The notes beneath the pieces are model-generated. The model did not search any database and had not been told where the DNA came from. It was given only the letters and a program-made list of their open reading frames with translations. Source: Lachnospiraceae bacterium (GTDB lineage: Bacteria; Bacillota; Clostridia; Lachnospirales; Lachnospiraceae). Taken from it: a stretch of DNA of 64,000 nucleotides. The DNA lies in the NCBI GenBank assembly GCA_021200475.1, contig JAJQGP010000003.1, positions 18,836 to 82,835 on the forward strand, in the 5' to 3' direction. The position numbers and the translations under genes are program-made. Below, piece by piece: positions 43,897-54,832 of the stretch; positions within the stretch are counted from its first letter, which is position 1, and every line of letters starts with the position of its first letter.

Positions 43897-44045
43897 ATGC
43901 AGGGAGAAAAACGATACCGTTTAAGCAAAAAGTGAGCAGTGGAAAGCAATTATTTTGGAGCAGAAAAGAGAGAAACTTTTTATAATAGACTGATCGGAAG
44001 AAGTCAACGATAGGAATAACGGAATTGGAAGGGACGGATCGTTTT

Positions 44046-47000
44046 ATGGCGGAACTGAGGCTGGAAGGCTACATAAATGTGATTCTGGATCCCGCGGCTG
44101 CGCAGGGAATTCGCAGGATTGGAGCAAAGGTGGCCGTGGATGTTGAAGCGGTAACGGGAGCAAAGAGCCAGATTATTATGCCGGGAGGGCATTTGCCGCA
44201 GGCAATTCTGGTCGCGGAGCTGGGACATGATGCGCTGGCAGATGTTCTGGTGGAGCGAATCCCGGAGCTTGGCACACTGAAGGACAAATGGGAGAGCTAT
44301 GGCTTTTATCTGGTGGAGCATCCGCTGCCGGAGGTGGAGCAGGGACTTGTGATTGTGGGAAGTGACCGGATTGGCACCATTTACGGAATGTTCCATCTGT
44401 CAGAGCTCCTCGGCGTGACTGCGTGGGGCTTTTGGGGAGATGCCAGGCCGCCGAAGCTGGGAAGTGTGCTTCTGACGGATCAGGAGAGGGTGCAGCCGGA
44501 AGAGACGGCAGTTTCTGAAGCAGGCAGGTATCCTTACAACAAGGCCAAAACGGACAAAACAGCCATGTATCTTTCGGCGGCTGGAATGAGCGGCTTTCTG
44601 AATGACCAGCAGCCCCCTCAGACACCGTGCGATGCGGCTGTCATTCCGGTAAAAAATGGGATTTCAAAAGAGCCTTCGGTGAAATACCGCGGATTTTTTA
44701 TTAACGATGAATGGCCGTGCTTTGGCAGCTGGACGTTTTCTCACTATAAGGGGTTCACTGCCGAGATGTATGACAGAATATTTGAATATCTGCTGCGCAT
44801 GAAGGGAAATTATCTGTGGCCAGCCATGTGGTCTTCTTCCTTTTTGCTGGACGGGCCGGGGCTTGCCTCCATGGAGCTGGCGACGGAATACGGTATTTTT
44901 ATCGGGATGTCCCATCATGAGCCGTGTATGCGCTCCGGTGAGGAGTTTTCCATTTTTAAGGGCGAGCATTCCCCTTATGGAAAGGACTGGAGCTATGAGA
45001 AGAATAAGGAAGGGCTGCTGAAGTTCTGGGAGGACGGCTTGAGCCGTGTGAAAGGGCAGAATATTTTCCCAACGATCGGTATGCGCGGGGAGAATGATTC
45101 GAAGATGCTGGGTGAGGATTCGACCGTGCAGGAAAATGTCCGCCAGCTAAAGGAGATCATCACGGAGCAGAGAAAGCTGATTGCAAAACATATTAACCCG
45201 GATCTGAAGCAGGTGCCGCAGCTCCTTGCCATTTATAAGGAAGTAGAGGATTACTTTTTTGGAAACAGCGAGTCTGCGGGACTGCGGGATTTTGAAGAGC
45301 TGGACAATGTGACGCTGATGTTCTGCGAAGACAATTTCAACAACATGCGTGCGCTGCCGCAGGACTTCTGCCGCTGTGTGGATGACGGGCAGACGGCGGA
45401 TGGAAAGCTGCGCTCTCATGCGGGCGGCTATGGGATGTATTATCATGTGGATTACCACGGCAGCCCGATTTCCTATGAGTGGGTGAACTCTACGCCGCTT
45501 ACGAAAATCTGGGAGCAGATGACACAGGCCTGGGAATATGGCATTCGTGAAGTCTGGATTCTCAACGTCGGCGATGTCAAATTTAATGAATATCCGCTGG
45601 GGTATTTTCTGTCGCTGGCGTACGACTTTGAAACTTACGGGTGTGCGGACCCGACGAAGCCTTCCTGTGATGCTTTGCATCGTAAAAACGCAGATGTGCC
45701 CGGCAGCGCGCAGATGGCGGAGGCTTCCAAGGGGCAGGCTGCGGAAGCATTTTATGGAAGAAAAGGCTATGAAAACACGCTTGCCTATCCTGCAGTCTGG
45801 GTGCGTTCCCTGTTTGACGCTTACGCAGACGAAGAGCAGCTGACCGATATTACCTGGGTGCTGGAAGAGTCCACGCGGCTTCACAGTCTGCGCAGGGCGG
45901 AGGCATTGAACGATACGATTTACCACCCGGCGCACTACGGGGAGGCGAAGAGAATGCTGACCCGTGCGGAAGCGCTGGAGAAGAAAAATGAGGAACTGCG
46001 GGGAATGCTTGAGAAGACGCCCTGCGGGGATGGATACTACAGTATCATTTATTTTCCGGCGGCCGGTATCGCGAATCTTCTGAAAATGCACCTGTATGCA
46101 GGACTGAATCATCTGTACAGCGCACAGGGCAAGGCGGCCGCGAACCAGTATGGAGAAAAGCTGGAAGCCTGCATGGAAAGAGATCGGGCGCTTGCAGCGG
46201 AGATGGCTGCATTTAAAGGCGGAAAATGGAGCGGTATGGAGCGCGAAGAGCATATCGGTTTTGTAAACTGGAATGATGAGGATTACCGCTATCCGGTGCG
46301 TCATGTGATGACACTCCCGAATCACCCGCGTCTGGTGGTATCGCGCGCGGATCGGACGCAGACCTTTACAAATCAGTATTTTCCGGTGCCGCTGGTGATT
46401 GACGATTTCCGGAATGCCGGAGCTGATGAGGTAGTCCTTGAGATCGCAAATGGCGGCCAGGGCGCAGTTGACTGGAAGATTGAGGGAGCAGACGACTGCT
46501 TTGAGATTACCCCGAAGGAAGGCCGCACGGAGCTGATCACGGAAGTGCGGATCCGTTTCCTGCGGGAGCGGTTTCTGGAAAAGAGGCGCGCCGATGCGTC
46601 CGCGCAGGAAAAGCAGGATTCTTTCTGCGGGCATGAAGCGGCAGTTCACAGCGAAGGGTGTGACAGCGCAGAATTCCCGTGTGCGGTTGTCGCCGGACGG
46701 GAGCGTGTGCCGCTGCTGCTCCGGGCGGGAATAAAAGATCTGGAGGCGGTGCCGGACGGAGCATTCCTGGTTCAGGATGGCATCTGCGTCTGGGATGCAG
46801 CTGCGTTTACGGATCATACCTCCATCGGCAGTGCCGCCTTCCAGGTGCTGGAGGAGTACGGAAAATACGATTCAGCCGTGAAGGTCTTCCCGACTACGGT
46901 GCGATTTGGAAAAGAAGAGTGGAGCCAGAGTGCTGCGCCGTCTCTCACCTATGAAATCTGGGCGGAGGAGGCCGGAGCGTATTGTCTGACGCTGCATACC

Positions 47001-47312
47001 TCCCCGGCAAATCCGCTCATCTACGGCGGGAAGCTTCGTGTGGGCCTGGCGGTCAACGGAGCGAATCCGGAGACGGTGACCATCACCGGCGAGGGCTACC
47101 GGGGCGGCGATCCGGGCTGCGCCGCATGGTGTCAGGCGGTGCTTGACCAGGAGCATAAAGCGAATACGTGTGTAAGCCTGCGGGAAGGCTTAAACCGGAT
47201 TACCGTTTACGCAGGGGATGCCGGGATTGCGCTGGAACGCTTTACCCTGGTAAAAGAGGGGGCGGAGCTTCTGCCGTCCTATCTGGGAGCAGATGTCAGC
47301 TATCGAAAGTAG
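44046..47312 (+). CDS. GH115 alpha-glucuronidase
   Basis: EPSVKYRGFFINDEWP, YLWPAMW, SHHEPC, GMRG, GMYYHVDY, NVGDVK. Confidence 0.88.
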   Translation: MAELRLEGYINVILDPAAAQGIRRIGAKVAVDVEAVTGAKSQIIMPGGHLPQAILVAELGHDALADVLVERIPELGTLKDKWESYGFYLVEHPLPEVEQGLVIVGSDRIGTIYGMFHLSELLGVTAWGFWGDARPPKLGSVLLTDQERVQPEETAVSEAGRYPYNKAKTDKTAMYLSAAGMSGFLNDQQPPQTPCDAAVIPVKNGISKEPSVKYRGFFINDEWPCFGSWTFSHYKGFTAEMYDRIFEYLLRMKGNYLWPAMWSSSFLLDGPGLASMELATEYGIFIGMSHHEPCMRSGEEFSIFKGEHSPYGKDWSYEKNKEGLLKFWEDGLSRVKGQNIFPTIGMRGENDSKMLGEDSTVQENVRQLKEIITEQRKLIAKHINPDLKQVPQLLAIYKEVEDYFFGNSESAGLRDFEELDNVTLMFCEDNFNNMRALPQDFCRCVDDGQTADGKLRSHAGGYGMYYHVDYHGSPISYEWVNSTPLTKIWEQMTQAWEYGIREVWILNVGDVKFNEYPLGYFLSLAYDFETYGCADPTKPSCDALHRKNADVPGSAQMAEASKGQAAEAFYGRKGYENTLAYPAVWVRSLFDAYADEEQLTDITWVLEESTRLHSLRRAEALNDTIYHPAHYGEAKRMLTRAEALEKKNEELRGMLEKTPCGDGYYSIIYFPAAGIANLLKMHLYAGLNHLYSAQGKAAANQYGEKLEACMERDRALAAEMAAFKGGKWSGMEREEHIGFVNWNDEDYRYPVRHVMTLPNHPRLVVSRADRTQTFTNQYFPVPLVIDDFRNAGADEVVLEIANGGQGAVDWKIEGADDCFEITPKEGRTELITEVRIRFLRERFLEKRRADASAQEKQDSFCGHEAAVHSEGCDSAEFPCAVVAGRERVPLLLRAGIKDLEAVPDGAFLVQDGICVWDAAAFTDHTSIGSAAFQVLEEYGKYDSAVKVFPTTVRFGKEEWSQSAAPSLTYEIWAEEAGAYCLTLHTSPANPLIYGGKLRVGLAVNGANPETVTITGEGYRGGDPGCAAWCQAVLDQEHKANTCVSLREGLNRITVYAGDAGIALERFTLVKEGAELLPSYLGADVSYRK

Positions 47313-47368
47313 AAAAAGTGCGGGATGCCACCTGGCGTTTCCGATGCTTCAAAGAAAGGAGAGCAATT

Positions 47369-48418
47369 ATGAACGGAACAATGAAAACGGCGGTTATGAC
47401 AGATATCCGCAAGGTTGAGATTCAGAGACGGCCGATCCCGGTACCCGAAGAGGATGAGGTCCTGGTAAAAATCGAGTACGTAGGTATCTGCGGTTCTGAC
47501 CTGCACTATTATGAGGCGGGAAGAATCGGAGATTTTATCGTGGAACCGCCATTCGTGCTTGGACATGAGGCGGGCGGCACAGTCGTCGAGGTTGGCAGCA
47601 ATGTAAAAAACCTGAAGGTCGGCGACCGTGTGGCACTGGAACCGGGCAAGACCTGCGGGCACTGCGAATTCTGTAAACAGGGCAAGTATAACCTGTGTAA
47701 GGATGTGGTCTTCTTCGCTACGCCGCCGGTGGACGGTGTCTTTCAGGAGTATGTGGCGCATGAGGCAGGACTTTGCTTCAAGCTTCCGGAGAACGTAAGT
47801 ACGCTGGAGGGAGCGCTGATTGAGCCGCTGGCGGTCGGTATGCACGCAGCAAACCAGGGCGAGGCGCATCTGGGACAGACAGCGGTTGTAACCGGTGCCG
47901 GCTGCATCGGTCTGGTATCTCTTCTTTCTCTGAAAGCGAGAGGTGTTTCTAAAGTCATTGTTGTGGATGTGATGGACAAGCGCCTGGAGAAAGCGAAGGA
48001 GCTGGGCGCGGACGAGGTGATTAACGGTGCGAAGGAAGACACGGTGGCACGGATCGCTGAGATTACCGGTGGTGCGGGCTTTGATCTGGGCATTGAGACA
48101 GCCGGCTCACAGATCACAGCGCAGCAGCAGATCCGCGCGGCAAAGAAGGGTGCGACGATTGTCTTTGTAGGCTACAGCCCGTCCGGCGATATGACGCTTC
48201 CGATCGGAACTGCGCTTGACAAGGAGCTGACCTTTAAGACGGTCTTCCGCTACCGCAATATCTACCCGATGGCAATTGACGCGGTATCCTCCGGTAAAAT
48301 TCACATCAAAGATATCGTGACCAATTATTTTGAGCTGGATGACATCCAGAATGCGCTGGATTCCTGTGTGGACAATAAGGCGGAGATAGTAAAGGGCGTA
48401 ATCCGGGTTGCGGAATAA
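47369..48418 (+). CDS. Zn-dependent NAD(P) polyol dehydrogenase (sorbitol/xylitol dehydrogenase family)
   Basis: GICGSDLH, GHE, structural-zinc Cys cluster, FATPPVDG, GAGCIG; AGGAG SD before 47369. Confidence 0.9.
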   Translation: MNGTMKTAVMTDIRKVEIQRRPIPVPEEDEVLVKIEYVGICGSDLHYYEAGRIGDFIVEPPFVLGHEAGGTVVEVGSNVKNLKVGDRVALEPGKTCGHCEFCKQGKYNLCKDVVFFATPPVDGVFQEYVAHEAGLCFKLPENVSTLEGALIEPLAVGMHAANQGEAHLGQTAVVTGAGCIGLVSLLSLKARGVSKVIVVDVMDKRLEKAKELGADEVINGAKEDTVARIAEITGGAGFDLGIETAGSQITAQQQIRAAKKGATIVFVGYSPSGDMTLPIGTALDKELTFKTVFRYRNIYPMAIDAVSSGKIHIKDIVTNYFELDDIQNALDSCVDNKAEIVKGVIRVAE

Positions 48419-48449
48419 ACCCAGACCACGAGCGGTAATGAAAAGTCAC

Positions 48450-48564
48450 GTAACTATTCAAAGCAGCAGCCCGCAGGTTTACGCTCCGCTTCGGTCGGCG
48501 CTAAGCGAGCGCCACTGGCGCTCCGCACCTGTCTTTTCATTTCGATGCTGTTCTGAATTGTTAC
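48450..48564. repeat. Family-A element
   Basis: GTAACTATTCAAAGCAGCA...TGCTGTTCTGAATTGTTAC; internal hairpin GAGCGCC-ACT-GGCGCTC. Confidence 0.85.
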
Positions 48565-48629
48565 AAAGTCACATATGAAGAAACAGGCGGGATTCGCATG
48601 TCTGAGATTGTGCGAATCCCGTGAACATT

Positions 48630-48837
48630 TTTTGCACACCCGGGAGACTGGCTATTTGCTGGTTTTTCCCGGGTTATTCACATTATCCACAATTTTATGC
48701 ACACCTGTGCCCGGGAGGAAAAAGGAAAATTTTGTGGATAACAAGATTTACATAATTATTCGACAAAATCCGCCAGTTTAGGGTTCTGGAATCTGGAAAA
48801 AGGAATTATTGTCAACCAGTTATCCACATTATCCACA
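48630..48837. promoter_or_regulatory. DnaA-box cluster
   Basis: Perfect TTATCCACA at 48683, 48733 (reverse), 48820 and 48829; TTWTNCACA matches at 48630, 48674 and 48695. Confidence 0.85.
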
Positions 48838-48892
48838 CAATTCACAGGAAAAGTGGCGGGGAAAACTCTTTCCCCCGGTGGAAAAGTAGCGG

Positions 48893-48921
48893 TTCTCATT
48901 TTGGAAGAAGTATGTTATACT
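48893..48921 (+). promoter_or_regulatory. Putative dnaD promoter
   Basis: TTCTCA, 17 bp spacer, TATACT with extended -10 TG. Confidence 0.55.
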
Positions 48922-48942
48922 CTTCCAAAGATGAAAAAGCGG

Positions 48943-49004
48943 GCTACAGGTCACACCTTGACCAGATTTATCTTATTTATACATTTACAGGTGTGACCTG
49001 TAAC
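48943..49004. repeat. Family-B 62 bp element (opposite orientation)
   Basis: GCTACAGGTCACACC...GGTGTGACCTGTAAC. Confidence 0.9.
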
Positions 49005-49080
49005 GGAATCCGGAGGCAGCAGTCATTTCTTTTTATTCCCGGATTTCGAAAAAGGATCATGACAGGGAAGGCGCACAGAG

Positions 49081-50349
49081 ATGAAGATATATACCGATAA
49101 TCCGGAGGGATCCACGGTGATCCGGAATTCATTTATTGATCAGTACATGCCCCATGCCAATGGGGAGTTTGTGAAAGTCTATCTGTATCTGCTTCGCTGC
49201 GCGAACAGCGGACGTGAGCTGTCCCTCTCCTCGATCGCAGATGTGTTTGAGCATACGGAAAAGGATGTGCAGCGTGCACTGACCTACTGGGAGCGGCAGA
49301 ATCTGCTTCAGTCAAAGCTTTCGCCGGATGGGACACTGGAATCGGTGACATTTCTGGACCCGGGATATTATTCTACACCGGTGATTCTGGCGGATGCCCT
49401 GCAGGAGTCGTCCGATCTTTACAGCGACGGGATGGCTTCCTACCGGGAGCCGGTTCCCGCCCGGCCGCATGGTCATGCGGCGGAACGGCAGCCGGAATCC
49501 GCCGGGGCGGCATCGCGCAGAGGTGCCTCCTGCCGGGAGAATACCCCGGGACGTCCGGCGACGATCCTGCGGATGAGAGAACCGGGCGGTGCGATGGCAG
49601 ATCAGCAGGGAAGTGTGCCGGAAGCTCCGGCGGCGGAGCAGGTGAGAGAACCGGAAGCGGATCAACCGAACGGGGGGGATTCCCCTCTGCTGTCGCAGAT
49701 GGATCCGGCGGTGCAGGGTGCGATTCGCGAGCTTTATTTTGTGGCGGAGCAGTATCTGGGGCGTCCGCTTTCTTCCACGGAGCAGAACGATTTTGTCTAT
49801 TATTATCATACGCTGGGGTTTTCGACGGACCTGATCGAATATCTGCTTGAATATTGTATTATGCGGGGGTCTTTCAGCCGCTATTATATGAATAAGGTCG
49901 CGCAGAGCTGGGCGGAGGCCGGTATCACGACTGTACTGGAAGCGAAGAAGGAATCCAGCCTTTACAATAAAAAATATTTTTCCGTGCTAAAAGAGTTTGG
50001 GATCAAGGGGCGGAATCCGGCCCGGTCGGAGCAGGATCTGATCGACCGCTGGCTGAATGAGTACGGCTTTGACATGGAAATGATTCTGGAGGCCTGCCGC
50101 CGCACGATCCGTCAGATACACGAACCGAATTTTCAGTATGCGGACAAGATTTTATCCCGATGGCATACGTCCGGGGTTCATACGATGAAGGACGCCGAGG
50201 CCGCAGATCTAAAATGGGAGCAGGAGCAGAAGGCGAAGAAACTCGCGCAGAGCCAGAAGGGCGGCGGCAATGCGGGACAGTTCAACAATTTTACGCAGAG
50301 AGAGTATAACTATGACAGCCTGGAGAAGAAGCTGTTTGGTCAGTCGTGA
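49081..50349 (+). CDS. dnaD: DnaD/DnaB-domain replication protein
   Basis: NSFIDQYMPHANGEFVKVYLYLL N-terminus; two DnaD-type domains (AEQYLGRPLS; YADKILSRW). Confidence 0.85.
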   Translation: MKIYTDNPEGSTVIRNSFIDQYMPHANGEFVKVYLYLLRCANSGRELSLSSIADVFEHTEKDVQRALTYWERQNLLQSKLSPDGTLESVTFLDPGYYSTPVILADALQESSDLYSDGMASYREPVPARPHGHAAERQPESAGAASRRGASCRENTPGRPATILRMREPGGAMADQQGSVPEAPAAEQVREPEADQPNGGDSPLLSQMDPAVQGAIRELYFVAEQYLGRPLSSTEQNDFVYYYHTLGFSTDLIEYLLEYCIMRGSFSRYYMNKVAQSWAEAGITTVLEAKKESSLYNKKYFSVLKEFGIKGRNPARSEQDLIDRWLNEYGFDMEMILEACRRTIRQIHEPNFQYADKILSRWHTSGVHTMKDAEAADLKWEQEQKAKKLAQSQKGGGNAGQFNNFTQREYNYDSLEKKLFGQS

Positions 50350-50430
50350 ACAGAGACGGACAGATAACGCTTCATGGGGCTGTCTGGCAGCATTGGAGCA
50401 GGAATCAGGGATGCTCATGGGTGGAGTGAT

Positions 50431-51522
50431 ATGGGACTGACAAATACGCAGTACGATGAGATTATGCGGGAGTATCAGCGCCGCCAGAATCAAACGCGGC
50501 AGGAGCTTTATGAGCGGGAACAGGAGGCGTATCGCCGGATACCGGAGCTGTCTGTGCTGGATGCGCAGATTGCGGCGATGAGTACGGCATGTGCACGGGA
50601 GCTGCTGGCCGGGCCTGTGGAAGAAGCTCCGGCAGATGACCGTATCCGGTCCGGGGATGATCGGCCTGGGACGGCCCGGTCGGAACAGACAGAAGAGCCG
50701 GTATTCCCCGCTTCCATCCGTTCGCTTCGCGGGCAGATTGAGGAGATCAGTGTGAAAAAAGCACAGCTTTTGCGGAATGCAGGGTTTCCGGAGGGGTATC
50801 TGCAGCCGCAGTATCGTTGCCCGGACTGCCAGGATACCGGCTACATCGGGCGGGAGAAGTGTCATTGCTTCCGGCAGGCGACCATCGACCTGCTCTATAC
50901 ACGGTCCAACCTGCGCGACGACATCCGGGAGGAGAATTTTGCTGCATTTTCTCTGGAGTATTACCCGGAGACGATGACGGATCCTGCTACCGGTCTCACT
51001 GCTGCCGCACTGGCTGCGCGCGCTCTTCAGGAATGCCAGCGCTTTGTGAGGGAGTTCGACGGGGAAGAGGCCGCGAACCTGTTTCTCACCGGGGATACAG
51101 GACTGGGCAAGACATTCCTCTCCCACTGTGTCGCCAATGCGCTGCTGGAAAGCACCCACTCCGTGATTTATTTTTCCGCATTCCGGCTGTTCGAGCTGCT
51201 GGCGGATTCCTCCTTCGGGCGCACCGATGAGCATGAGACGAGTGAGCTGGAACGGCATATTTTTGCGTGTGATCTTCTGATTATCGATGATCTGGGGACG
51301 GAACTGGTAAATTCTTTTGTTGCGTCCCGGCTGTTTCTGATCCTGAATGAACGGATGCTTCGCCGGAAGAGTACCATGATATCGACGAATCTGTCGCTGG
51401 CAGCGATTGCTGAGCGTTATTCAGAACGTGTCCTCTCCCGGATTTCCAGCGACTACCGGATGCTGCGCCTGATCGGGGATGATATCCGAATCCGCAGGAA
51501 GCTCGCGGCGCGGTATAATTAA
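50431..51522 (+). CDS. DnaI/DnaC-like helicase-loader ATPase
   Basis: Zn ribbon CPDCQDTG...CHC, Walker A GDTGLGKT, LLIIDDLG, STNL, YSERVLSRI. Confidence 0.88.
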   Translation: MGLTNTQYDEIMREYQRRQNQTRQELYEREQEAYRRIPELSVLDAQIAAMSTACARELLAGPVEEAPADDRIRSGDDRPGTARSEQTEEPVFPASIRSLRGQIEEISVKKAQLLRNAGFPEGYLQPQYRCPDCQDTGYIGREKCHCFRQATIDLLYTRSNLRDDIREENFAAFSLEYYPETMTDPATGLTAAALAARALQECQRFVREFDGEEAANLFLTGDTGLGKTFLSHCVANALLESTHSVIYFSAFRLFELLADSSFGRTDEHETSELERHIFACDLLIIDDLGTELVNSFVASRLFLILNERMLRRKSTMISTNLSLAAIAERYSERVLSRISSDYRMLRLIGDDIRIRRKLAARYN

Positions 51523-51713: not shown

Positions 51714-52904
51714 ATGCAGACAGGTTATGAGCGGAATCTGAATTCGATCCCGGTCGGGGATCTGGGTATTATCGCGCTGAGAAGCTGCGAAGAGCTGGGC
51801 AGGAAGATCGATGCCCATATTGTCAACTGGCGATCGGAGCGTGTGCATGAGCATCAGGGAAGTCCGCTGCTCCTGGGGTATGATAAGACCTCCTATCTGG
51901 TGAGTACAGATGTGCCGCGTTTTGGCTCCGGTGAGGCAAAGGGACAGGTAAATGATTCGGTGCGGGGCAAGGACATCTATATCCTGGTGGATGTATGCAA
52001 CTACAGTCTCACATATTCCTTAAACGGTTATACGAACCGCATGTCCCCCGATGACCATTACCAGGACCTGAAGCGCGTGATCGCAGCGATCGGCGGGAAG
52101 ACGCGCCGGGTCAATGTCATTATGCCATTTCTTTACGAGAGTCGTCAGTTTACACGGGCGGGACGCGAGTCACTGGACTGTGCGATAGCCCTGCAGGAGC
52201 TGACGAAGATGGGCGTAGAGAATATTATTACGTTTGATGCGCATGACCCGCGGGTACAGAACGCGATTCCGCTTCATGGGTTTGAGACGGTTCTTCCGGT
52301 TTATCAGTTTATCAAAGGCCTGTTCCGCGCGGCACCGGATCTGACGATTGACCCGGAGCATCTGACGGTGATCAGCCCGGATGAGGGAGCAGCCGGCCGC
52401 GCGATTTATATGGCGAACCTGCTTGGCGTGGATATGGGGATGTTTTACAAGCGGCGTGATTACGCCCACGTCAAAGACGGCAAGCATCCCGTGGTGGCGC
52501 ATGAGTTCCTTGGCAGAGAGATAGAGGGGCAGGATGTGGTTCTCATTGACGATATGATTGTCACGGGTAACAGTATGATAGAGGCTGCCAGACAGCTCAA
52601 AAAGAGAAAGGCGAAACGCGTGCTGATCTGCGCGACCTTTGGCCTGTTCACTAACAGCCTGGAGAAGTTTGACAAGGCCTATGAGGAGGGACTGTTTGAC
52701 GCGCTGGTGACGACGAATCTGGTTTATCAGTCGCCGGAGCTGCTCTCGAAGCCTTACTACACGGGCTGCGACCTCAGCAAATATATTGCGCTGATTATTG
52801 ACACGCTGAATCATGATGGTTCCATGAGCGATCTGCTCACGCCGACTGCAAGGATTCATAAATTCCTGGCAAAACACAGAAAAACGGATAAGGCAATCGA
52901 GTAG
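51714..52904 (+). CDS. prs: Ribose-phosphate pyrophosphokinase
   Basis: RFGSGEAK, MPFLYESRQ, FDAHD, SPDEG, PRT motif VVLIDDMIVTG. Confidence 0.88.
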   Translation: MQTGYERNLNSIPVGDLGIIALRSCEELGRKIDAHIVNWRSERVHEHQGSPLLLGYDKTSYLVSTDVPRFGSGEAKGQVNDSVRGKDIYILVDVCNYSLTYSLNGYTNRMSPDDHYQDLKRVIAAIGGKTRRVNVIMPFLYESRQFTRAGRESLDCAIALQELTKMGVENIITFDAHDPRVQNAIPLHGFETVLPVYQFIKGLFRAAPDLTIDPEHLTVISPDEGAAGRAIYMANLLGVDMGMFYKRRDYAHVKDGKHPVVAHEFLGREIEGQDVVLIDDMIVTGNSMIEAARQLKKRKAKRVLICATFGLFTNSLEKFDKAYEEGLFDALVTTNLVYQSPELLSKPYYTGCDLSKYIALIIDTLNHDGSMSDLLTPTARIHKFLAKHRKTDKAIE

Positions 52905-52931: not shown

Positions 52932-52995
52932 GCGCGAGGCGCATCCGGCGATGGCTGGAAAACTTTCATATGCGCCTCTGTGCATAAAAAAAGAG

Positions 52996-53053: not shown

Positions 53054-54511
53054 TTACTGTTTTCCAAGCAGCTTTTCACCGATTCGCACGACATCTCCCG
53101 CCCCCATGGTAATCAGCAGGTCACCGGGAAGACAGTTTTCCAGAAGAAATGTCTCAATCTCATCAAAGGACGGAAAATACCAGGCTTCTTTTCCTTTCTC
53201 TTCAAGCTTATCACGCAGCAGAGCAGAGCTGACGCCGAGTGTGTCGGTCTCCCGTGCTGCATAAATGTCGGCCAGAACGATCCGGTCAGCTAAAGTGAGC
53301 GCGTCCGCAAATTCATCGAGCAGCGCTTTCGTGCGCGAGTAGGTGTGCGGCTGAAATACGCACCAGATCCGGTTTGCCGGATATTTCTGCGCGGCACGCA
53401 GAGTTGCGCGGATTTCGGTCGGATGATGGGCATAATCGTCTATAATAGTCACACCGCCGATGACTCCTTTTTTCTGGAAACGCCGGTCTGTGCCGTGAAA
53501 ACCGGCAAGACCGTCCGCGATACAGGCCGCGGGAACACCGAGCAGGTCTGCACATGCGATCGCTGCCGCAGCATTCCCTGCATTGTGTTCGCCTGGAACA
53601 TGCAGGGAAAAATGACCAAGGAGCCGGTCCCGGCATTCTTCTGCGGCATGCGTTCCCGGCTTCGGTGCGCCATCTGTGGCAGCGTCCGGCAAAGCCGCAG
53701 TTTCCTGTCTGACATACAGGTCGAAGCTGGCACAGCCCATTTCATCCCAGGTGAGGTTTTCTGCGTGATAGTCGCCGCAGCCGGAACCAAAGGTGACGAC
53801 CCGGCAGCGCAGCCCGGCGGTAAAAGCGTCCAGCTCCGGTATTTGTGCGTGAATGATGAGTGTTCCTTCCGGAGGAATCTTTTCCGCGAATAGCCGGAAG
53901 GAGTGGCGGATATCATCGAGATCTTTGAAAAAGTCCAGGTGATCGGCGTCAATGTTGAGGATCAGTCCGTACAGGGGGGTCAGATGCAGAAAGCTGTTTG
54001 TGTACTCGCAGGCTTCTGTCAGGAAGCAGTCGGAAGCGCCCACCCGTACGTTCCCGCCGATGGAAGGGAGGATGCCGCCGACGGAGATGGTCGGGTCCAT
54101 GTTCTGTTCCATCATAATATGGGCGAGCATGGAGGTCGTGGTGGTTTTTCCATGTGTTCCGGCCACAGCCACAGAGGTCGGATAATTGTCCATCAGCTGT
54201 CCGAGAAGCTCCGCACGGGACATCAGAGGGATCCCTTTCTCTACAGCTGCCGCATACTCCGGGTTATCCGGGTGAATGGCCGCCGTATACACGATCAGAT
54301 CAATGTCATCTGTCACGTTCGCTGCGCTTTGCGGGATGGCAACCCTGGCTCCCAGACCGGTCAGCCAGGCGGTCAGCTCGCTTTTTCTGGAATCAGAACC
54401 AGTCACTGTGAAGTGACGGTTTAAAAGAACTGCCGCCAGTCCACTCATACTGATGCCGCCGATCCCGATAAAATGAATGTGGATTGGCTGCGCGAAATTT
54501 ATCTGATACAT
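53054..54511 (-). CDS. murC: UDP-N-acetylmuramate--L-alanine ligase
   Basis: IHFIGIGGISMSG, GTHGKTTT, EACEY, DDYAHHPTE, FQPHTYSRT; true start MYQINF at 54511. Confidence 0.96.
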   Translation of the reverse strand: MYQINFAQPIHIHFIGIGGISMSGLAAVLLNRHFTVTGSDSRKSELTAWLTGLGARVAIPQSAANVTDDIDLIVYTAAIHPDNPEYAAAVEKGIPLMSRAELLGQLMDNYPTSVAVAGTHGKTTTTSMLAHIMMEQNMDPTISVGGILPSIGGNVRVGASDCFLTEACEYTNSFLHLTPLYGLILNIDADHLDFFKDLDDIRHSFRLFAEKIPPEGTLIIHAQIPELDAFTAGLRCRVVTFGSGCGDYHAENLTWDEMGCASFDLYVRQETAALPDAATDGAPKPGTHAAEECRDRLLGHFSLHVPGEHNAGNAAAAIACADLLGVPAACIADGLAGFHGTDRRFQKKGVIGGVTIIDDYAHHPTEIRATLRAAQKYPANRIWCVFQPHTYSRTKALLDEFADALTLADRIVLADIYAARETDTLGVSSALLRDKLEEKGKEAWYFPSFDEIETFLLENCLPGDLLITMGAGDVVRIGEKLLGKQ

Positions 54512-54832
54512 TTTAGAAACTCCTTCTGTATATAATAAAAGATAAAAGCAATCACTGTTCGATCTACCGTATCTGATTATACTCAGTTTTTTCCAAATGT
54601 CTATCAGAAAATACGCTGCTGCGGATCTCGAAGCGAGGTGGAGCGAAATCACGAAAACAACAAAAAAAGCCCTTCTGTCGCTTGAAAAAAGTAACAACTA
54701 TATTCATTACATCTGTTATTTATTCCAAATACCATAAAAAAATATAGAAATAATTGTAAAAAATGTTCACTATTCGAAAAAGGTGTGGTATAATTTGCCT
54801 TGAAACAATACTTTGACTGCAGAGGTGATAAC

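Follow-up and report, generated by a model that had tools for sequence, protein, structure and literature searches.

Control of helicase-loader genes by DnaA has a precedent in B. subtilis, whose dnaB(-dnaI) promoter is cited as subject to DnaA-dependent regulation (Goranov et al. 2005 in Ishikawa et al. 2007, PMC2533591) and whose sda gene requires its upstream DnaA boxes for expression (PMC2533591). The same chromosome carries the clusters known as DBCs, at sda, ywlC, yydA, gcp-ydiF, trmE-jag and ywcI-vpr (PMC2533591, PMC3245932); initiation occurs earlier when six clusters are removed, and a cluster that is put back is most effective close to oriC (PMC3245932). From E. coli, datA and DARS1/2 are introduced in the latter study as high-affinity non-origin clusters that modulate the availability or nucleotide state of DnaA (PMC3245932), and E. 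coli DnaA prefers closely spaced box pairs (Stringer, Fitzgerald and Wade 2024, PMC11317965). Here we analyse a window of 64,000 nucleotides (contig C49:18836-82835) from a Lachnospiraceae draft genome of 3.22 Mb (180 contigs, 50% G+C) and describe a dense group of DnaA boxes upstream of its helicase-loader operon, which on balance we take to be a non-origin DnaA-binding region for the operon's promoter, one that would combine DnaA-dependent control with concurrent titration of the initiator.

The first gene of the operon (49081-50349, plus strand) encodes a 422 aa initiation protein of the DnaD/DnaB family with two DDBH2 domains (Pfam DnaB_2 twice, 5e-41; TIGR01446 DnaD_dom twice), and the second (50374-51522, plus strand) a 382 aa DnaI/DnaC-like AAA+ helicase-loader ATPase (Pfam IstB_IS21 and Bac_DnaA) that reaches 345 bits with NCBIfam NF005304 (cut-off 215) and scores under the cut-offs of the DnaI and DnaC models. 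The earlier note had labelled this pair dnaD-dnaI, a label to be corrected for the first gene, whose product has an architecture nearer to B. subtilis DnaB than to DnaD. PF07261, the DnaB_2/DnaD domain family, is found in this one gene only in the genome, which suggests that one DnaD/DnaB-type protein, carrying two DDBH2 domains, is all that the organism has; in B. subtilis, DnaD and DnaB are separate proteins. The third gene, syntenic across relatives, is prs for ribose-phosphate pyrophosphokinase (51714-52904, plus strand). Upstream of the boxes lie genes for a GH115 glycosidase and a Zn-dependent alcohol dehydrogenase, both on the plus strand, the latter ending in a strong intrinsic terminator (48587-48622, plus strand; a T run after a 14 bp stem) that is evident from a terminator scan and from the sequence. 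As annotated, the two open reading frames (44025-47312 and 47168-48418, the second with a GTG start) overlap by 145 nt (47168-47312), and since the dehydrogenase matches Pfam only from residue 95 on, its gene probably begins downstream of the annotated start. An Rfam scan for RNA elements in 47000-50000 returned ctRNA_pGA1 as its sole match, which at E = 0.6 and 20.6 bits against a 45-bit cut-off we regard as noise.

Between 48630 and 48837 the earlier note had read seven boxes, four perfect TTATCCACA and three TTWTNCACA, with abutting tandem runs at 48674/48683 and 48820/48829, and re-reading the sequence recovers every one of them. The distal group comprises R1 (TTATTCACA, one mismatch, 48674-48682), the perfect TTATCCACA box R2 that it abuts (48683-48691) and, after a 3 bp gap, R3 (TTATGCACA, one mismatch, 48695-48703), all on the plus strand, followed by R4, a perfect box in reverse orientation (48733-48741, minus strand; TGTGGATAA on the plus strand) that is recognised from sequence and conservation alike. 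The proximal group is made up of R5 (48820-48828) and the abutting R6 (48829-48837), both perfect TTATCCACA on the plus strand, and of the degenerate R7 (CAATTCACA, 48838-48846, plus strand), which abuts R6 at a position that is conserved in relatives and is occupied by a one-mismatch box in several of them. Two weak sites with two mismatches each lie further out: TTTTGCACA (48630-48638, plus strand), which overlaps the T run of the terminator, and the reverse box TTTTCCACC (48878-48886, minus strand), whose position is likewise conserved, with TGTGGAAAA, equal to TTTTCCACA with one mismatch, found there at four loci (L006, L007, L012, L013). Six boxes with at most one mismatch, four of them perfect, fall within 156 bp, where a DBC has at least four in about 100-200 bp; with the weaker sites included the cluster totals seven to nine boxes.

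Perfect boxes are otherwise sparse, with 44 in the 3.22 Mb genome or about 0.003 per 250 bp, and the expectation for four of them in 155 bp, about 1e-5 per genome, excludes chance as the source of the cluster. When DnaA-box clusters of the draft genome are ranked by boxes per 250 bp, that of the loader operon comes first (six boxes with at most one mismatch, four perfect) and the dnaA-dnaN origin second (five boxes, four perfect), which is of relevance to origin-prediction tools, as box counting alone would rate the loader-operon cluster as high as the true origin. Among the clusters ranked next, one (C27:27908-27971) lies upstream of a gene for a cell-wall-binding-repeat surface protein and combines an abutting perfect pair with two one-mismatch boxes and a GGTTTACATA motif, and another (C90:21046-21112) has two perfect boxes between the gene for a 1703 aa surface protein and a transposase-like gene.

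Compared with the described systems, the locus comes close to the B. subtilis dnaB promoter as portrayed in PMC2533591, with which it would share the regulator and does share a DnaD/DnaB-family gene preceding a DnaI-type gene and boxes in the promoter region. B. subtilis dnaB is, however, absent from the eight regions of stable high-affinity DnaA binding defined by ChAP-chip (PMC2533591), whereas the site described here is the densest in its genome, has a fixed two-module layout and belongs to a Clostridia-class gut anaerobe in which one DnaD/DnaB-family gene was detected. Like the B. subtilis DBCs, some of which regulate a neighbouring gene, the cluster is intergenic and has at least four consensus or near-consensus boxes outside oriC; unlike them, it sits at the loader operon, where none of the six B. 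subtilis DBCs is found, its position is conserved family-wide and it is joined by two conserved non-box motifs. With datA and DARS it has in common that it is a non-origin cluster of high affinity, as judged by its sequence, with the opposed box orientations and set spacing that datA and DARS require, but these need IHF and act via ATP hydrolysis or nucleotide exchange, and the resemblance is one of boxes alone. Finally, R2 and R3, co-oriented and 3 bp apart, correspond to the 'double DnaA box' preferred by E. coli DnaA in vivo (PMC11317965), while the best-conserved pairs, R1-R2 and R5-R6, have no spacing between their boxes (0 bp), an arrangement not described as preferred (PMC11317965).

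Conservation upstream of the loader genes, which the earlier note had proposed as a check, is strong across Lachnospiraceae; the relatives are gut MAGs and isolates of this family, among them Candidatus Choladousia and Candidatus Choladocola. In counts that are uncorrected for kinship and come from loci that are not phylogenetically independent, at least two perfect boxes precede the loader operon in 22 of the 24 assessable loci of the genus (protein identity 46-96%), as they do in 25 of 27 named Lachnospiraceae records; the other genera of the family have at least two boxes in 24/27 loci and at least three in 21/27, which together with closed or near-closed genomes from five further genera (5/5) brings the cluster to 29 of 32, and in other families of the order it is found in 7 of 16, that is in 6/8 with murC-loader synteny and in 1/8 without. 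Ancestrally and across the family, murC is followed by the cluster, the loader operon and prs. In other genera the boxes set in 4-10 nt past the murC stop with a tandem pair, which a third box follows at a gap of 3-5 bp, and minimal three-box versions place the boxes upstream of the murC terminator hairpin. We did not count TGTTGATAA, a one-mismatch 'box' about 60 bp inside the murC 3' end, since the conserved LLITMG motif gives rise to it.

In this genome and its nearest relatives, the dehydrogenase gene with its own terminator replaces murC upstream, and cluster and promoter stay with the loader operon. Here murC lies convergently at 53054-54697 on the minus strand, no longer upstream of the cluster, which fits an inversion of the cluster-to-prs segment. 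Since the cluster stayed with the operon after its separation from murC, this natural experiment argues that it serves the loader operon rather than murC, and across species the linkage between boxes and operon outlasts replacement of the upstream gene. The relocated murC has its own terminator hairpin downstream, the T run of which continues into a lone TTATGCACA box (52979-52987) that may be a remnant of ancestral murC-proximal boxes after inversion. As to exceptions, one genus locus (L011 of G001) keeps the promoter with boxes degenerated to TTATCCGCAATATCCGCC, and at further loci of the comparison (L023 of G007, L084, L102, L043, L044) murC abuts the loader operon and the cluster is lost; in some of the cluster-less lineages the murC-loader gap is 16-30 nt, with neither boxes nor a separate intergenic promoter. 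Hence, being lost or degraded in some lineages, the cluster is dispensable. The loader operon of this genome is co-directional with replication and murC is head-on. In three closed or near-closed relatives (G071:C1:1.675 Mb, G103:C1:2.555 Mb, G160:C1:2.198 Mb) the whole murC-loader-prs block is head-on, with replication direction inferred from the position of dnaA and, in G071, also from skew; head-on orientation is unusual for essential genes in Firmicutes.

Within the genus, 15 loci were aligned without gaps, with the proximal pair as anchor; the majority fraction is 0.93-1.00 for the boxes as against 0.45-0.60 for spacers and flanks, with 0.95-0.97 in the distal R1-R3, 0.93 in R4 and 0.99-1.00 in R5 and R6. 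Spacing is invariant in all anchored genus loci (50 bp from R2 to R4, 87 bp from R4 to R5), and the distance from cluster to start codon varies from about 100 to 440 nt. The layout is thus one of two modules: three co-oriented boxes and a reverse box, then the invariant 87 bp spacer edged by non-box motifs, then the second tandem array. The two motifs, both on the plus strand, are GATTTACATAA (48745-48755, majority fraction 0.90) and TTATTGTCAAC (48806-48816, majority fraction 0.97), which ends 3 nt before R5. We considered and rejected them as operator of a regulon: the exact 11-mer TTATTGTCAAC occurs once in the whole genome, GATTTACATAA turns up dispersed through coding sequence, and a whole-genome search gave no genome-wide motif behind GATTTACATAA. 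Promoters inside the spacer were set aside too, as its conserved -35-like elements (TTTACA/TTGACA on the plus strand, TTGACA on the minus strand) have, by eye, no conserved -10 at 16-18 bp in relatives. The spacer between the box groups also contains TTCGACA (48759-48765), the complement of the Spo0A '0A box' TGTCGAA; as the motif occurs in only about 6 of the 15 genus loci, we did not adopt a Spo0A reading.

The predicted promoter of the loader operon (48893-48921, plus strand) consists of a -35 TTCTCA (48893-48898), a 17 bp spacer, an extended TG and a -10 TATACT (48916-48921). The earlier note had placed a promoter about 55 bp downstream of the boxes, and a promoter scan arrived at it independently. 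Boxes adjoin this promoter, as they do in regulated ones, with R6 ending 55 bp and the weak reverse box 6 bp before the predicted -35. Across the genus the signature 'TGTTCTCATTTT...TGnTATACT' is kept, and other genera have TGnTATAAT. With TTGTCAAC as an unambiguous anchor in 18 genus loci, the distance between the end of R6 and the -10 falls into two length classes that account for 16 of them, 67-69 bp (seven loci) and 78-79 bp (nine loci), with outliers at 104 and 172 bp; despite these classes, the intervening sequence has diverged past easy alignment. The 10-11 bp between the classes amounts to one helical turn, which is suggestive of the kind of spacing expected from a contact, of a protein with the polymerase or with another protein, that needs one face of the DNA. 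In other genera such classes recur (68-69, 77-79, 87-90), and a cross-genus Rayleigh test yields a broad peak at 9-11 bp in which the helical period is not separable from the 9 bp box register. Downstream, where transcription is predicted to start near 48928, the leader measures 166 nt from -10 to ATG, compared with 33-76 nt for the majority of genus loci. This greater length goes along with further leader sequence absent from most relatives and with a 61-62 bp inserted element (48943-49004, seen in sequence and as a hairpin), which is bounded by terminal inverted repeats of roughly 15 bp and does not belong to the DnaA site.

From boxes and promoter we infer that DnaA would bind here, that binding would affect transcription and, with more reserve, in which direction. 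DnaA would occupy the high-affinity tandem boxes of the distal (R1-R3 plus reverse R4) and proximal (R5-R7) groups, and ATP-DnaA might then oligomerise cooperatively from these anchors toward the weak reverse box that a gap of 6 bp separates from a weak -35. Access of RNA polymerase would be altered and the supply of loader proteins coupled to how much DnaA is present or how active it is. If B. subtilis dnaB is a guide, repression is the more likely sign, and activation, as at sda, may be kept in mind. The cluster would also act as a DnaA sink because it holds 4 of the 44 perfect boxes of the genome and so matches in number the dnaA-dnaN part of oriC, which is assembled without the region upstream of dnaA.

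Sequence alone cannot separate regulation from titration, and the most serious alternative, which we consider possible though clearly the less probable view, is that the site is mainly one of DnaA titration or inactivation, akin to a DBC or datA, that buffers free DnaA and delays re-initiation and whose synteny with the loader operon is accidental. Abutting perfect-consensus boxes that are near-identical across the genus and rank first in the genome speak for it, as do strong boxes that stay outside the core promoter; these do not cover it but stop 55 bp short of the -35, which fits a sink or a roadblock no less than an operator. The locus is, moreover, fairly near dnaA wherever both share a contig, and B. 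subtilis DBCs are most effective near oriC (PMC3245932). Ten of the eleven same-contig distances (90, 137, 166, 175, 177, 227, 239, 262, 287, 338 and 667 kb) are within 90-338 kb of dnaA, but draft assemblies skew such distances short; in the five closed or near-closed genomes the distance amounts to 4-9% of the chromosome in four cases and to 22% in the fifth, and in the present draft the origin, placed on another contig, lies leftward of the cluster by more than 67 kb. A pure sink, however, need not remain beside one promoter once the upstream gene has changed, nor does it need fixed box-to-promoter length classes or a weak box close to the -35. Sink and regulation are not mutually exclusive, and we favour DnaA-dependent control of the loader operon with titration as its companion.

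The two-module layout invites a further idea, namely that the site is no simple operator but a dedicated nucleoprotein device, for example a loader homeostat or a DnaA-state switch, which we regard as rather unlikely. In one variant, DnaA bound to the cluster could recruit the operon's own DnaD/DnaB-like product and so form a self-closed loader homeostat; in another, the site together with a second protein on the non-box motifs could alter the activity state of DnaA in the manner of datA or DARS. Still less probable in our minds is a DnaA-dependent roadblock or insulator that stops read-through from the upstream gene, ancestrally murC, or aids termination. The boxes do start 4-10 nt past the murC stop in most of the family and precede the murC hairpin in minimal versions, as such a role would have it, but here murC is not upstream and a strong terminator (48587-48622) already precedes the cluster, yet the full cluster is kept.

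The earlier note had also entertained an atypical origin, while pointing out that it saw neither dnaA nor dnaN nearby nor a DnaA-trio run. Both genes are indeed elsewhere, on contig C91 (dnaA 64-1392, dnaN 1797-2888), and the cluster, on C49, has no run of three or more [CT]TA or TA[GA] triplets. The dnaA-dnaN gap holds 4 perfect boxes of the same consensus as those of the cluster, a trio-like run (TTATTATTA) after a GC cluster and a 27-mer of 93% AT, as compared with 81% for the most AT-rich 27-mer of the cluster. Nor is there an inversion of GC skew, which the note had named as the mark of oriC: in 41 bins of 2 kb the 83.7 kb contig averages about +0.15 and is positive with a single exception (-0.014, in a bin some 32 kb upstream of the cluster), with +0.14 to +0.17 around the cluster itself. 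In G071, a closed 2.77 Mb genome from another genus of the family, skew turns from negative to positive at 1.42-1.44 Mb, where dnaA lies, and is uniformly positive around the cluster and loader operon at 1.676 Mb, 239 kb from that switch. By position, skew and the lack of a trio run or strong AT-rich element, the cluster is therefore outside oriC, as DBCs are. So a second or atypical chromosomal origin, for which one could invoke a box density equal to that of the dnaA-dnaN origin and neighbouring genes whose products load the helicase, is to our minds highly improbable, given a complete canonical origin on C91, the missing trio run, the lower AT content and a skew that does not switch here; with no skew inversion and with strong conservation at the loader operon, we reject it and let the regulatory and titration readings stand.

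Both non-origin DnaA-box clusters and DnaA-regulated promoters are known kinds of element, and the locus, which is one of the former, likely belongs to the latter as well. In the literature that we searched, no DnaA-box cluster at a helicase-loader operon is reported outside B. subtilis; measured against it, the new features are the helicase-loader operon as target, conservation throughout Lachnospiraceae, a density equal to that of oriC and a fixed two-module layout with extra conserved motifs. To our knowledge, the control of replication initiation in Clostridia-class gut anaerobes has been little studied. With a target of about 260 bp, the site is compact. Found family-wide, with very high affinity as predicted from its boxes, and placed directly before genes that act immediately after DnaA in initiation, it points to a conserved feedback that may link the initiator to how much loader protein is supplied.
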